IMG/VR virus record: IMGVR_UViG_3300045580_000382
Source of the DNA: an uncultured virus (IMG/VR IMGVR_UViG_3300045580_000382)
Lineage: Duplodnaviria > Heunggongvirae > Uroviricota > Caudoviricetes
Length of the DNA: 21,201 nucleotides
Direction: 5' to 3' (one strand)
This document shows positions 6,641-21,201 of the stretch, one piece after another. The stretch's first letter is position 1, and each line of letters begins with the position of its first letter. A model generated the notes under the pieces. It was not told the origin of the DNA and made no database searches. It saw only the letters and a list, made by a program, of their open reading frames with translations. Position numbers and translations under genes: made by a program.

Positions 6641-7099
6641 TTAATTGACAAATTTTTCAACAGCGCTTATTGCTTCTTCCTCTGATTTAAAGTTACCTAA
6701 AAACTTACGTTTACCTTCTATACGAGGGCCTCTTGCTTTCCAAACATTATTTGAACGGTCATAGTAAACATATTTACAAGATTTGTACCTCTGACAGTTT
6801 TTAGTATTTTCAGATTGTGTTATTTGACGCAAGTTTTCTATTTTGTTATTTGAAGGGTTATTATCTTTGTGATCAATAACTAAATTTTTATCAAGATTAT
6901 TACCATGCCAAACCCATATCAAACGATGAAGAAGATATTGACAATTCTCAAAGCAAACTTGATAGTATCCGTCTGCTCTTAAAATACCTATGGATTTATT
7001 TGTTTCTTTACATATCAAAAATCCGTCTTTGTAATCAAATCGTTCTTTTAATTCTTTAGTTGAAGGACATTTTTTCCGAAAATCAGGGTTAAAAGTCAT
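6641..7099 (-). CDS. Free-standing HNH homing endonuclease with AP2-like tail
   Basis: LKERFDYKDG, LLHRLIWVWH, IDHKDNNPSNNKIENLRQITQSEN, FLGNFKSEEEA; much more AT-rich than its neighbours. Confidence 0.93.
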   Translation of the reverse strand: MTFNPDFRKKCPSTKELKERFDYKDGFLICKETNKSIGILRADGYYQVCFENCQYLLHRLIWVWHGNNLDKNLVIDHKDNNPSNNKIENLRQITQSENTKNCQRYKSCKYVYYDRSNNVWKARGPRIEGKRKFLGNFKSEEEAISAVEKFVN

Positions 7100-7336: not shown

Positions 7337-7990
7337 CTAGATAACCCAGTCGTTAGTGCCGCCTAAGGCTTCAGCAATCGTTGGGAACTGCCCACAAAAG
7401 ATCTGCTTGGCATCCTTAGCGATCTGCATGTGCTCCATCTGGGTGCCATGCTTTTCACGTAGGGCAATGTAGGTAATCCAGGAACGGAGTGAACCGTTCA
7501 TGTAAATACGGGTTGGAGATGCGAGAGGAAGAATGCTACGTGCACATTCCTTAGCTACACCACTGCTGACCATCTCTTGGTAGAGATGCTCAGCTTCTTC
7601 AAAGAGTGTACTGATGCGCCTGTAGTACTTGCCAGTCAGCTCAGCATCGAGATCATCGATGGAGTTCTGCCTGTTCTTTGTATCCTGGCGGCGCAGATGC
7701 GGCACATAGGTTGAACCTAATAGATTGATATCTGCGTAGCGCTGACTGAATTCCTGGAAGGAAAAAGAACGGTGGCGAATAATCTGCGCAGAGATCGCAC
7801 GTGTTGTGTGGATCTCTAGGCACATGTTCGCCATTTCAAATGGAGACCAGTGAGCGTGTTTGATCAGATACTGAAGCAACTTAGGAGCAGTCTCCATGTT
7901 GTTCTCATTGGCTGGCGCCGAAACGCGAGCCATCTTTGTGATCAATGCTTCAGCATCTGGCGTTGACCAAACCAGTTCAACAATGCTCAT
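7337..7990 (-). CDS. thyX: FAD-dependent thymidylate synthase
   Basis: HWSPFE, QIIRHRSFSFQEFSQRY (RHRx7SxR motif), GVAKECARSILP, LREKHGTQMEH. Confidence 0.97.
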   Translation of the reverse strand: MSIVELVWSTPDAEALITKMARVSAPANENNMETAPKLLQYLIKHAHWSPFEMANMCLEIHTTRAISAQIIRHRSFSFQEFSQRYADINLLGSTYVPHLRRQDTKNRQNSIDDLDAELTGKYYRRISTLFEEAEHLYQEMVSSGVAKECARSILPLASPTRIYMNGSLRSWITYIALREKHGTQMEHMQIAKDAKQIFCGQFPTIAEALGGTNDWVI

Positions 7991-17755: not shown

Positions 17756-18214
17756 TCAGAAAGGCACAACTTCTGCAGTTGGCTCTTGAGAGTAAGGAGC
17801 ACTGGCGGCGGCAGGAGTAGCGGCGGGCACAGCGTGAAGCGACTTACTGATGGTATTCGCTTCGATCACACCAGCGGCCTCTGCGGCCCTGTGAGCCGTC
17901 GAGATCTGACCCAGGCGTACCGTATTGACAGAGGTAACAATCACCTCCATACGGCCGCGTGGCTCGCCTTCTGGTGTCATCCAGGTGACATAACGCAGGC
18001 GTGTAGTCAGGGCAACAGTGTCACCCTTGTTGTAACGCTTGGCGATGTTCTCACCGACGCCGTTGTAAGCGATGACAGGCAGCGGAGAATCCTCTTCCCT
18101 GGCATCGAGCGGAGCAACACGGAACTGTGTGACCGAAAGAGAATCGTTGGGATTCTTGGTCATAATGTCGGACACGATGGTACCGACCAGGTTTCCGTTG
18201 TTAGCAGCAGACAT
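17756..18214 (-). CDS. ssb: Single-stranded DNA-binding protein (bacterial-type OB fold)
   Basis: NLVGTIVSD...FRVA...VIAYNGVGENIAKRYNKGDTV...LRYVTW..EG..R; Ala/Pro linker; C-terminal EVVPF. Confidence 0.88.
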   Translation of the reverse strand: MSAANNGNLVGTIVSDIMTKNPNDSLSVTQFRVAPLDAREEDSPLPVIAYNGVGENIAKRYNKGDTVALTTRLRYVTWMTPEGEPRGRMEVIVTSVNTVRLGQISTAHRAAEAAGVIEANTISKSLHAVPAATPAAASAPYSQEPTAEVVPF

Positions 18215-18319
18215 GGTGTTGTCTAGGTAGGTGTACAAAGCAGGCAGAAGCCTGCAGAAAGGGAACTAAGCCAAGGCCTAGATCCCAAAGTGCAGACATC
18301 AGAAAAGCTGAAGAAAAGA

Positions 18320-18854: not shown

Positions 18855-18917
18855 TTAGAGACAGAAGAACAAGAAGATGATCGTTAAGATCATTGAATTG
18901 AATAAAATCTTTCTCAT
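18855..18917 (-). CDS. 20-aa hydrophobic micropeptide MRKILFNSMILTIIFLFFCL
   Basis: ATGA overlap with the upstream stop; ends 2 nt before the next ATG. Confidence 0.45.
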   Translation of the reverse strand: MRKILFNSMILTIIFLFFCL

Positions 18918-19171
18918 GGTTTAATTGCAGCGGCTGGGCCATGCAATACCATCTTGGATACACAGCCATAGCTTTCACCTACAGCTGTCTTGAGAGATAC
19001 AATCTGATATAACTTGCTGTCACAAGTAGCAAGGACCCTGGCGTTGATCGCTTTATTCAAGCCAACGCACAGTAGTCCTCCGATACCCATTCCAAGAGTG
19101 ATACCAACGTAAGCAGGTAACTGTTCACGGTGGCGATTCATGAAATTAATGATGAAAGATGAGAGGGACAT
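18914..19171 (-). CDS. Small membrane protein with two downstream Cys
   Basis: YVGITLGMGIGGLLCVGL transmembrane segment; start ATG 19171. Confidence 0.7.
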   Translation of the reverse strand: MSLSSFIINFMNRHREQLPAYVGITLGMGIGGLLCVGLNKAINARVLATCDSKLYQIVSLKTAVGESYGCVSKMVLHGPAAAIKP

Positions 19172-19190
19172 GGTGAGCAAAGCAGAGTTA

Positions 19191-19265
19191 GCAGGGACTC
19201 ATCAGGCTCCCCATACAGGGAGCGACCGGAGGGAGCGGTTGCTGCCCTCCAGTTTCGTCCTATGC
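19191..19265 (-). ncRNA. Hammerhead ribozyme, type II topology
   Basis: Minus strand reads GGAC-GAAA-CUGGAGGG(C)AGC AACC GCUCCCUCCG-GUC^-GCUCCC UGUAUG GGGAGC-CUGAUGA-GUCC: complete core, three stems, GUC triplet. Confidence 0.93.
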
Positions 19266-19484
19266 GTCAATGAAGCGCTGCCAGCCAAGTTCTAGCTGAT
19301 TGCTCAGCTTGTAGCCCTGGTTGAGCAGCTTCTTCACACTAGAGCGGACATAATCGACAGGTGCTTCCAAGCGGATGTACTTGGATACCTGGCGGTCGAG
19401 GTCAACCTTGGTCATCTCAGCAAAGTCACCACGGATGGTGACGAGATAACCGTCGTTGCCCTTCTCGTAGATGAAAGATTCCAT
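19260..19484 (-). CDS. Hypothetical protein
   Basis: 74-aa ORF with TTTGCACAC leader; its stop codon lies in the ribozyme's stem II. Confidence 0.75.
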   Translation of the reverse strand: MESFIYEKGNDGYLVTIRGDFAEMTKVDLDRQVSKYIRLEAPVDYVRSSVKKLLNQGYKLSNQLELGWQRFIDA

Positions 19485-19557
19485 GGTTAGGAAGTGTGCA
19501 AAGAACGTGATCGATGAAGATCACAGAGAAGGAAGCACCAGGCTTCCCTCTGAGGGA

Positions 19558-19788
19558 TCATCCTTCGTCGTCGTTGAGTAGAGCAGCAAGCTCCGCCTCA
19601 ACTTCTTTCGGGATGGTATAGACACCATCGTTAGGTGCAATCAGGTCAGCAAGCTTGCGCCGTGCCCTGGTTACACCTTGCTTGATCTTCTCTCGGCCTT
19701 CTGGAGGAAGGTTACTGTAAGCAACAGCGCCGCCGATAACAGCACCACCGAGAAAAGATAGCTTGAGGACGTTGTTAAACAGTGACAT
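19558..19788 (-). CDS. Small membrane-anchored protein
   Basis: LSFLGGAVIGGAVAY followed by a charged helix. Confidence 0.7.
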   Translation of the reverse strand: MSLFNNVLKLSFLGGAVIGGAVAYSNLPPEGREKIKQGVTRARRKLADLIAPNDGVYTIPKEVEAELAALLNDDEG

Positions 19789-19850
19789 GAGTCAGAGTGC
19801 GAGTGGAAGTGATTGTGAACGTTGATAGATGAAAGTAAAAGCACTGAAGA

Positions 19851-20030
19851 TCAGATGCTGTACCCATTAGCAATGCACCAGTCACGGTGCTTCTGATCAG
19901 CCTCTACAGGCCAATCATGTGCAGAGCATTGCTTGGTGGTTGCAATATCAATCTGATCGATAACAATTTGTGTAAAGCTCACTAGGCTTACAGCCCAGAG
20001 AATGACAACAACAGCGGTGTTCTGTTTCAT
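19851..20030 (-). CDS. Small membrane/secreted protein (...QCSAHDWP...HRDWC..NGY)
   Basis: Start placed at ATG 20030, after TTTGCACAC; hydrophobic N-terminus. Confidence 0.7.
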   Translation of the reverse strand: MKQNTAVVVILWAVSLVSFTQIVIDQIDIATTKQCSAHDWPVEADQKHRDWCIANGYSI

Positions 20031-20071
20031 GACAGGGTGTTGTGTGCAAAGCCTGCGAAGGTGCAGGCCAG

Positions 20072-20124
20072 TGTTGAGTGGGGATTCGATCCCCAGCTCG
20101 CGCTTCACTCACGTGAACTCAACA
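20072..20124 (-). ncRNA. tRNA-like mini three-way junction
   Basis: UGUUGAG/CUCAACA 7-bp stem; UUCAC-GUGA-GUGAA GNRA hairpin; UGGGG-AUCGAAU-CCCCA T-arm-like hairpin. Confidence 0.65.
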
Positions 20125-20163
20125 GATAAAAGAACTTTCTCTTCCGGATTGATCCAGAAGGAA

Positions 20164-20880
20164 AGCGACCAGCGGGAGCGGAGCCTCACCACAGGTGAAG
20201 CTGATACGCACCAAAGACGGAGTACTCAGCCCACTTATCGATCATCTCCTGCAGAGACCATCGGATGGGTGAGTCCTCACCAGGCCAGACGAGCGGAGTA
20301 GGTTCCTCTCCCTGGCGCTGATCATATAGATAGGTACCACGTTGATCGCAAAGCATGAGGCCTTGCTCAGTTGTGATAGAGACCATGGAACTAATCAGTA
20401 GGACAGCAGTCAGAAGACTGCATCCAAGGAAAAAAAGCCCTGGAGGCAATCATCGCAGCAACACGAAGTTGCATCGAAATAGTTACTAAAACTGAACACA
20501 GTTCAATAAGTTTGGAAAACCCGTCAAGTTTTCCACAATTTAAAAATTTAGCTAGCCCAAAATCGCACAAAACTCCTGGTCGAAATGAGGTTGAGAAGTC
20601 TTGCGCTGCAGTGGATCTAGGGGAAATATGGGGTAAAAAGGTATAACGGAAGTGTTATACAGGGGTAAAAGAGACTACAAACTGTTCGTCCCCTACAGTG
20701 TTCAATCTTGCAACCGTCTACTCTCCAAGAGCGACCGGAGGGAGCGGTTCCCCACTCCTCCCGCATACAAAATTGAACACACAATTACAAATACTTTCTC
20801 TTCTCTAATGCGACCGAAGGGAGCAATTTCACTACACTTTCTTTTTTTTCCTCTCGCTAGCTTCTGCGAGCACAGCGAGC
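20164..20880 (+). repeat. Dispersed GCGA-SC-NNN-GS-GAGC mini-hairpin repeats (another copy at 19222-19236)
   Basis: GCGACCagcGGGAGC 20165-20179; GCGACCggaGGGAGC 20731-20745; GCGACCgaaGGGAGC 20810-20824; GCGAGCacaGCGAGC 20866-20880. Confidence 0.75.
20186..20386 (-). CDS. Hypothetical protein (MVSITTEQG...)
   Basis: Likely start ATG 20386; first gene of the leftward run. Confidence 0.55.
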   Translation of the reverse strand: MVSITTEQGLMLCDQRGTYLYDQRQGEEPTPLVWPGEDSPIRWSLQEMIDKWAEYSVFGAYQLHLW

Positions 20881-21003
20881 TTGATGTCTCCAGCGCTCCA
20901 CACCCTTAAACCCAACTTTTTAAGGCCGTTAGGGGGCAACACCTGGCGCTATTACTGTATTGATTGCACCTAAAATCAGTTATATCTAGATAAATTTATA
21001 AAA
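20450..21003. promoter_or_regulatory. Non-coding divergence region (promoters; possible origin or genome end)
   Basis: Strand switch, no credible ORF; palindrome GTATAAC-N6-GTTATAC (20641-20660) flanked by GGGGTAAAA repeats. Confidence 0.55.
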
Positions 21004-21201
21004 ATGCCTGTATCTCCGCAGGATTATGCGCTCTGGGCCCAGGCAACAGGCAATCCATACCCTAAAACACCAGAAGAAAAGGCCCGTTTAGCCCCTGAAG
21101 TGTATGATTTCAACCGGGGATTTGGTAAATTCAAGGGTTTTGATGAAGTACAGGGTTTCCAAGGGGATACTGTCTACGATCAACCCATTTCTATCCGCCA
21201 C
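21004..21201 (+). CDS. 5' part of a hypothetical protein (MPVSPQDYALWAQATGNPYPKTPEEKARLAPEVYDF...)
   Basis: Open frame from ATG 21004 to the window end. Confidence 0.75.
   Translation, partial: MPVSPQDYALWAQATGNPYPKTPEEKARLAPEVYDFNRGFGKFKGFDEVQGFQGDTVYDQPISIRH

Follow-up and report, generated by a model that had tools for sequence, protein, structure and literature searches.

A conserved type II hammerhead with predicted self-cleavage between two small phage genes, and its interrupted or replaced counterparts in related viral contigs

The early mRNA of phage T7 carries RNase III sites between its genes, at which cleavage needs the host enzyme and leaves 5'-phosphate and 3'-OH ends, and cleavage by hammerhead ribozymes leaves 2',3'-cyclic phosphate and 5'-OH ends. 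Type II hammerheads of bacteria, prophages and phages were described in 2011 (Perreault et al. 2011, PMC3088659), and the processing of long phage transcripts was already proposed in that report as a role for them. In most type II hammerheads, according to the same account, loop I forms a pseudoknot of at least 4 bp with the sequence immediately 3' of stem II. In D. vulgaris, three hammerheads of this type that lie near phage-like genes are reported to cleave in vivo (PMC8782182), and what hammerheads do for bacteria and phages has been called an open question (PMC6155905). The element analyzed here has the same core, topology and intergenic site beside small phage genes as the type II hammerheads in the account of Perreault et al. 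(PMC3088659), and differs in that its clade carries a single copy whereas those described there occur in clusters. This kind of element has been documented since 2011, and the functional reading given below, which is plausible, was anticipated in print. What is mildly new is a blind spot of Rfam, a homing-endonuclease gene inside a hammerhead, and a natural series of alleles in which the hammerhead is intact, destroyed or replaced.

The window (the whole stretch of DNA that was analyzed) comprises 21,201 nucleotides from an uncultured virus assigned to the Caudoviricetes (IMG/VR record IMGVR_UViG_3300045580_000382). All plausible genes in the window are on the minus strand, and the features discussed in the text are collected in Table 1. 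The preliminary description had taken this DNA to be that of a phage, which agrees with the presence of a family A DNA polymerase, ThyX, SSB and an HNH endonuclease on one strand and with relatives that are all IMG/VR viral contigs. The DNA polymerase of the window was at most 44% identical to the polymerases of cultured phages, and a blastn search of 18900-19800 against 50,697 phage records matched nothing. DNA matching this stretch occurs in freshwater and other aquatic metagenomes. Of the two small proteins encoded on either side of the hammerhead, the upstream one (74 aa) gave a sub-threshold match in Pfam, none in PHROGs, and no relative in a scan of bacterial genome contigs, so that no clue to the host was obtained, and the family of the downstream one (85 aa) is found neither in Pfam nor in PHROGs. 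No promoter-like or terminator-like site above chance was detected in or beside the ribozyme interval, and read-through transcription of the interval is therefore plausible.

Table 1. Coordinates of the hammerhead, its flanking genes and other features (window positions unless a locus is named)
Feature	Position	Strand	Basis or remark
Whole type II hammerhead including outer helix IIb	19191..19265	minus	sequence, MFE fold, covariation, model R2
Helix IIb	GCA 19265-19263 / UGC 19193-19191	minus	sequence
Stem II 5' strand GGAC	19257..19260	minus	partner GUCC 19198-19195
Core G12 A13 A14 (GAA)	19254..19256	minus	columns invariant in alignment A1
Stem III hairpin, A15.1...U16.1	19225..19253	minus	9 bp, bulged C, 3 bp, loop AACC
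C17 of GUC triplet	19224	minus	predicted cut 19224/19223, placed by hammerhead rules
Stem I hairpin GCUCCC-UGUAUG-GGGAGC	19206..19223	minus	GCUCCC 19223-19218 / GGGAGC 19211-19206, loop UGUAUG
Core C3 U4 G5 A6 U7 G8 A9 (CUGAUGA)	19199..19205	minus	sequence
Stem II 3' strand GUCC	19195..19198	minus	sequence and covariation
Upstream ORF, 74 aa, no known family	19260..19484	minus	stop TAG 19262-19260 shares G with first base of stem II
Downstream ORF, 85 aa from ATG 19171, no known family	18914..19171	minus	
Family A DNA polymerase	874-2721	minus	
HNH endonuclease	6641-7099	minus	
ThyX	7337-7990	minus	
SSB	17756-18238	minus	
YkuD-domain protein	within window	minus	
Exact 21-nt copy of repeat motif (stem III 3' strand + GUC + GCUC)	20729..20749	minus	non-coding-looking region, without catalytic core
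Third copy of repeat motif, 76%	20163..20183	minus	just past stop of ORF 20186-20449, then hairpin
Fourth copy of repeat motif, 76%	20808..20828	minus	
Junction hairpins of relatives without hammerhead	L014:1729-1765, L015:1730-1762, L017:1761-1793		folds computed

A complete type II hammerhead with every core nucleotide had been claimed for the junction of these two genes, and all of its elements were located on the minus strand: the core is fully present, consisting of CUGAUGA (19205-19199), GAA (19256-19254), the pair A19253-U19225 and C19224. The topology is that of type II, in which loops close off stems I and III, stem II is open, and the order is 5'-II-GAAA-III-H-I-CUGANGA-II-3'. Stem III reads ACUGGAGGG-C-AGC-AACC-GCU-CCCUCCGGU, where ACUGGAGGG is paired with CCCUCCGGU and followed by a bulged C and AGC/GCU, and the outer helix IIb is separated from stem II by UA on the 5' side and C on the 3' side in the minus-strand reading. 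Two further statements of the preliminary description, on the start of the ribozyme at the stop codon that ends ORF 19260-19484 and on a predicted cleavage between 19224 and 19223, agree with the TAG whose G is the first stem II base and with C17 as assigned by hammerhead rules. The 3' end of the hammerhead is 20 nt upstream of ATG 19171, and the predicted new 5' end is 52 nt upstream of it, close to the distance of about 50 nt given earlier. A Shine-Dalgarno-like sequence is absent before ATG 19171, including in and after helix II, and the start context of the downstream ORF, CACCATGTC, is retained in two related loci (L004 and L108).

The minimum free energy (MFE) fold of the 86-nt RNA was exactly the three-way junction, including the GCA/UGC helix, at -39.3 kcal/mol (z -4.09), a stability reached by none of 200 shuffles. 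When a 261-nt context was folded, the MFE structure retained stems I and III, the region of the stem II 5' strand was paired with upstream coding sequence, and the ensemble frequency was 0.0005. A type II descriptor written for this analysis found one site in the window. With lenient settings (stem I at least 4, stem II at least 3, stem III at least 4) it gave 2 matches in 300 dinucleotide shuffles of the window, and with strict settings (at least 6, 4 and 8, respectively) it gave one match in the window and none in 1000 shuffles. No second hammerhead was found in the window by the type II descriptor or by the covariance model R2 described below, run with filters off. Loop I (UGUAUG) and the 3' tail (CUGCUAAC) showed no complementarity by eye, and in the subfamily as a whole no Watson-Crick pairing of this loop with the tail that would make a conserved pseudoknot was seen, so that inspection by eye found no tertiary contact of the kind needed for fast cleavage. 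A 4-bp pairing of loop I with the 5' flank (UAUG/CAUA), likewise judged by eye, is present in the window, L004 and L108 and absent in L009, L010 and L072, and is inconsistent across the subfamily. By the sequence and structure definition of the class, and by the evolutionary conservation presented next, the identification of minus strand 19265-19191 as a real type II hammerhead is supported, and its cleavage is predicted.

Relatives of the 74-aa protein were found at 18 viral-contig loci (all IMG/VR; 52-93% identity), and the junction downstream of it occurs in these loci in four states. An intact hammerhead is located at the same junction in seven of the 18 (L004-6, L009, L010, L011 and L013). 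One locus (L012) has an otherwise identical ribozyme with G10.1 changed to A (CUGAAGAAUCC, L012:1780 region), by which the innermost stem II pair is broken; natural variation or an error in sequencing may account for the change. At five loci (L001-3 and L007-8) the hammerhead is interrupted within the stem I loop; L001-3 are identical over 3222 nt, and the interrupted loci represent two distinct lineages. In the other five (L014-L018) the hammerhead is absent and the junction is occupied by a strong hairpin, made terminator-like in L014 and L017 by a U-run that follows it. Two more syntenic variants, in which homologues of the two flanking genes enclose the ribozyme, were recovered by the pattern search (L072 and L108). 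An exact 17-mer match in L020 was dropped as chance (different, GC-rich context; no covariance-model match).

The stems differ among these relatives while remaining largely paired. Stem I occurs as GCUCCC/GGGAGC, GCUCUC/GAGAGC and GGCCAC/GUGGCC, stem II as GGAC/GUCC, GAAC/GUUC (L010) and AGAC/GUCU (L072), and stem III in several versions; in the CUGAUGA core only position 7 varies (C in L010, A in L011). In alignment A1, which contains eight sequences, 91.8% of the pair cells were standard pairs, compared with 36-51% when the partner was slid, all core columns except N7 were invariant, and changes on both sides were present in 9 of the 25 pairs. These values were distributed over stem I (100% paired, both-side changes in 3 of 6 pairs), stem II (96.9%, 2 of 4 pairs) and stem III (83.3%, 4 of 12 pairs). 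The covariation score of A1 was 0.354, compared with 0.201 ± 0.027 for shuffled alignments, and was reached by none of 500 shuffles, a result which, for a small sample of eight related sequences and a shuffle control that is not a probability, counts as support and not as proof. Compensatory changes in three stems and an invariant core, next to a flanking protein that is only 59% identical, argue for purifying selection on the hammerhead fold.

A wider set of viral hammerheads was collected with a gapped pattern of the core pieces, which matched 88 stretches in viral contigs corresponding to 65 distinct sequences; under a strict consecutive-pair rule, 41 of these had all three stems. A covariance model built from A1 (R1) returned 125 matches across 81 sources (213,494 bases), with a single one in the window. 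In A2, the alignment of these R1 matches by fitting to the model (81 distinct rows), 94.2% of the cells were paired and 22 of 25 pairs had changes on both sides. For model R2, 62 hammerheads at 34 viral loci were used, all from outside the subfamily of the window; it scored the window site at 73.5 bits (E 5.6e-19), with 8.5 bits for the next best site in the window, and is not to be read as fully independent, as its members were gathered with a pattern from the core of this ribozyme and aligned with R1. Parsing succeeded for 57 of the 81 class sequences and failed for 24, and three features frequent among the parsed ones recur in the window element: an unpaired A ahead of stem II (53/57), GGAC as the 5' strand of stem II (42/57) and a 7-bp stem I (42/57). 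Among 66 hammerheads from beyond the subfamily, 36 had the stop codon of an ORF of at least 40 codons at -6 to 0 nt from stem II, versus 70 of 1320 random positions, and in the wider class a ribosome-binding site and start codon typically follow 8-25 nt after the ribozyme. The window element is a member of this large class of intercistronic viral hammerheads that abut stop codons, an arrangement which Perreault et al. (PMC3088659) had reported for prophages; it differs from the arrays on other viral contigs in being a single ribozyme, and it has no Shine-Dalgarno-like sequence in or after helix II. Many unrelated viral contigs (L046/L102, L056-L058, L084-L086 and others) were seen to carry several hammerheads of the same build within 2-3 kb, with five matches in L046.

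The search with the Rfam Hammerhead_II model, which had been recommended as a check, turned out negative: no match at the gathering score was obtained in the whole window, and no hammerhead at E ≤ 10 on 19100-19350, where the sole Rfam match was a chance mgtC_leader (12 bits). The gathering threshold of RF02276 is 37 bits, and the window element falls below it. When RF02276 was applied to 12 loci with clear type II hammerheads of the same build, three sub-threshold matches were returned (31, 29.1 and 22.5 bits), all of them off-site, and none coincided with the pattern-matched ribozymes of those loci. In the consensus of RF02276, a stem II of 2 bp is followed by the pseudoknot of loop I with the 3' tail, whereas the window has a 4-bp GGAC/GUCC stem, an internal loop and a 3-bp helix. 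Since RF02276 also misses related viral hammerheads, its failure is not counted against the ribozyme, and it reflects a narrow model more than an exclusion from the ribozyme class. Rfam is blind to this viral subclass, as is evident from 125 matches of the home model in 81 loci against three sub-threshold Rfam matches in 12 loci, and because the subclass it misses is well populated, catalogue counts of phage ribozymes are too low. A separate Rfam search of 19800-21201 at E ≤ 1 returned only a miRNA match, which was judged to be chance.

The interruption of the hammerhead in five loci is due to a 563-nt cassette (1774-2336 in L001, the same in L002 and L003, and at the same junction in L007 and L008), which stands in place of 8 nt present in the L004 allele, GGGGAGCC. 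The cassette removes the 3' strand of stem I and C3, so that by hammerhead rules the interrupted allele would be dead. Its product, 166 aa long, is an HNH_3 protein (E 6.8e-9) that also resembles AP2 weakly, at a level under the Pfam cut-off; it matches PHROG 99, HNH endonuclease (2.6e-39), and is 28% identical to the HNH protein of the window. Phages carry free-standing genes for HNH homing endonucleases (PHROG 99, Pfam HNH_3) that encode this type of protein, and the cassette differs from them in being inserted into the DNA of a small ribozyme. No literature on a homing-endonuclease gene inside a phage hammerhead was found by title or abstract opening. Counted per 100 nt, the identity of L001 to L007 is 94-98% in the cassette and 76-91% in its flanks, a pattern expected of recent lateral spread by homing. 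The 3' end of the cassette is a strong hairpin (-26.5 kcal/mol, z -4.47). When whole records were searched with R2, an 83-kb relative (estimated 97% complete) contained one hammerhead, and an 80.8-kb record carrying the cassette (estimated 94% complete) contained no hammerhead match. Given this record and the destruction of the hammerhead in five of 18 loci, the ribozyme looks dispensable in this phage clade. A second hammerhead match of 35 bits was noted in the L011 lineage (record G005, 22119-22204), approximately 3 kb upstream of the syntenic one, in contrast to the single copy in the clade of the window.

Tentatively, and as a possibility rather than an expectation, the junction may be viewed as a slot for interchangeable modules that form RNA ends (a hammerhead, a terminator-like hairpin, or an HNH cassette ending in a hairpin), with the DNA of the ribozyme serving as the homing site of the endonuclease. 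If so, a homing endonuclease gene would have invaded a small self-cleaving ribozyme instead of a group I or group II intron or a protein gene, and the clade would offer natural, isogenic-like contrasts (intact, destroyed, replaced) in which the role of a phage hammerhead could be tested.

We consider it likely that the minus strand at 19265-19191 encodes a genuine and selectively maintained type II hammerhead, through which the transcript would cleave itself between cistrons and uncouple two hairpin-ended messages. Starting from the computed motif, fold, covariation and class membership, we infer that the site is transcribed, that cleavage takes place in vivo and that message stability or expression is affected. 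In the proposed sequence of events, a polycistronic minus-strand RNA would fold into the three-way junction and cut itself after C19224. The stop codon would stay with the upstream message, whose 3' end, 35 nt farther on, would carry a 2',3'-cyclic phosphate and be formed by the very stable stem III hairpin of 9+3 bp. The downstream message would open immediately with the stem I hairpin and a 5'-OH, its first nucleotide being 52 nt upstream of ATG 19171. Separate folds of the two predicted products retain these terminal hairpins. In bacterial mRNA decay, terminal hairpins hinder both 3' exonucleases and 5'-end-dependent nucleases; the cut would thus uncouple the fates of the two RNA segments, giving them hairpin-capped ends without a host nuclease, and both segments would probably be stabilized. 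The proposed cut resembles the RNase III sites of T7 in that a polycistronic phage RNA would likewise be divided between cistrons into hairpin-ended, separately stable messages, and differs in that the element is predicted to be self-cleaving, with 5'-OH and 2',3'-cyclic phosphate ends, and in that it has no sequence relationship to those sites. The stop codon touches stem II, and a terminating ribosome would therefore cover the 5' part of the ribozyme, from which it would follow that cleavage must precede ribosome passage or fall between passages.

An active hammerhead might instead end or lower expression, by acting as the equivalent of a terminator for the upstream RNA and by exposing the 5'-OH downstream RNA to 5'-end-dependent decay, in the way that the 5'-OH product of the glmS ribozyme in Bacillus is decayed via RNase J1. 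The hairpins at the same junction in L014-L018, with their U-run in two cases, fit a slot in which RNA ends are formed and also keep this reading alive, as do the strong hairpin at the end of the replacing HNH cassette and the fact that cleavage frees no Shine-Dalgarno-like sequence. We nevertheless hold it to be unlikely, in that the downstream product would open with a 7-bp hairpin and no single-stranded 5' tail, which would hinder 5'-end-dependent nucleases, and in that the ribozymes of the class typically precede a ribosome-binding site and start codon within 8-25 nt, suggesting that the downstream gene is expressed. The compensatory changes in three stems around an invariant core, beside a protein that has diverged to 59% identity, speak against the view that the element is a real hammerhead by descent which is now neutral or selfish baggage, for example the remnant of a mobile, ribozyme-flanked gene cassette, and of no benefit to the phage. 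That view, which we regard as improbable, could appeal to the 94%-complete relative lacking an intact hammerhead, the destruction of the ribozyme in five of 18 loci, the core-adjacent mismatch of L012, the presence of one copy per approximately 80 kb in this clade where other viral contigs have arrays, and the location at a mosaic boundary, other contigs switching at 19169; loss by insertion of an endonuclease gene is, however, explained by homing drive, for which neutrality is not needed.

The reading of the element as a resemblance due to chance, or as two ordinary intergenic hairpins with no catalytic meaning, is close to refuted. The failure to match Rfam would be expected of it, and part of the element is a local repeat, given that the stem III 3' strand with GUC and GC recurs three more times nearby without the core; on the other side are the absence of strict-descriptor matches from 1000 shuffles, the distance between the R2 score of the site and the next best in the window, the invariant core and the covarying stems. 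The locus is a clean test case for the role of hammerheads, as it has a single copy between two genes that are both conserved, and as its close relatives include some with an intact ribozyme, some in which insertion of an endonuclease gene has destroyed it, and some with a terminator-like hairpin in its stead.

Contigs from two other sequencing runs were observed to match the hammerhead region and then to continue in unrelated sequence beyond 19169, at the start of the downstream gene, which places the ribozyme at a mosaic boundary.

The repeat mentioned above is a motif of 15-21 nt, GCUCCCUNCGGUCGC, which corresponds to the 3' strand of stem III, GUC and the first bases of stem I, and of which four copies occur within 1.6 kb on the coding (minus) strand, the hammerhead copy being at 19220-19240. 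Copies are found at syntenic places in L001-L010 and are absent in L011-13 and L072. An interpretation of the three extra copies as decayed hammerheads was rejected, GAAA and CUGANGA not being in place; the copies may be a regulatory repeat, a family of hairpins or relics. The copy at 20163-20183 is followed by a hairpin CUUUCCUUCUGG...CCGGAAGAGAAAG (window 20110-20180, minus strand; approximately 675-715 in L001 and 1132-1170 in L004), the stem of which varies among relatives and yet stays paired by eye. This hairpin may be another intercistronic RNA element. The word GAAGAGAAAGUUC recurs after other copies of the motif.
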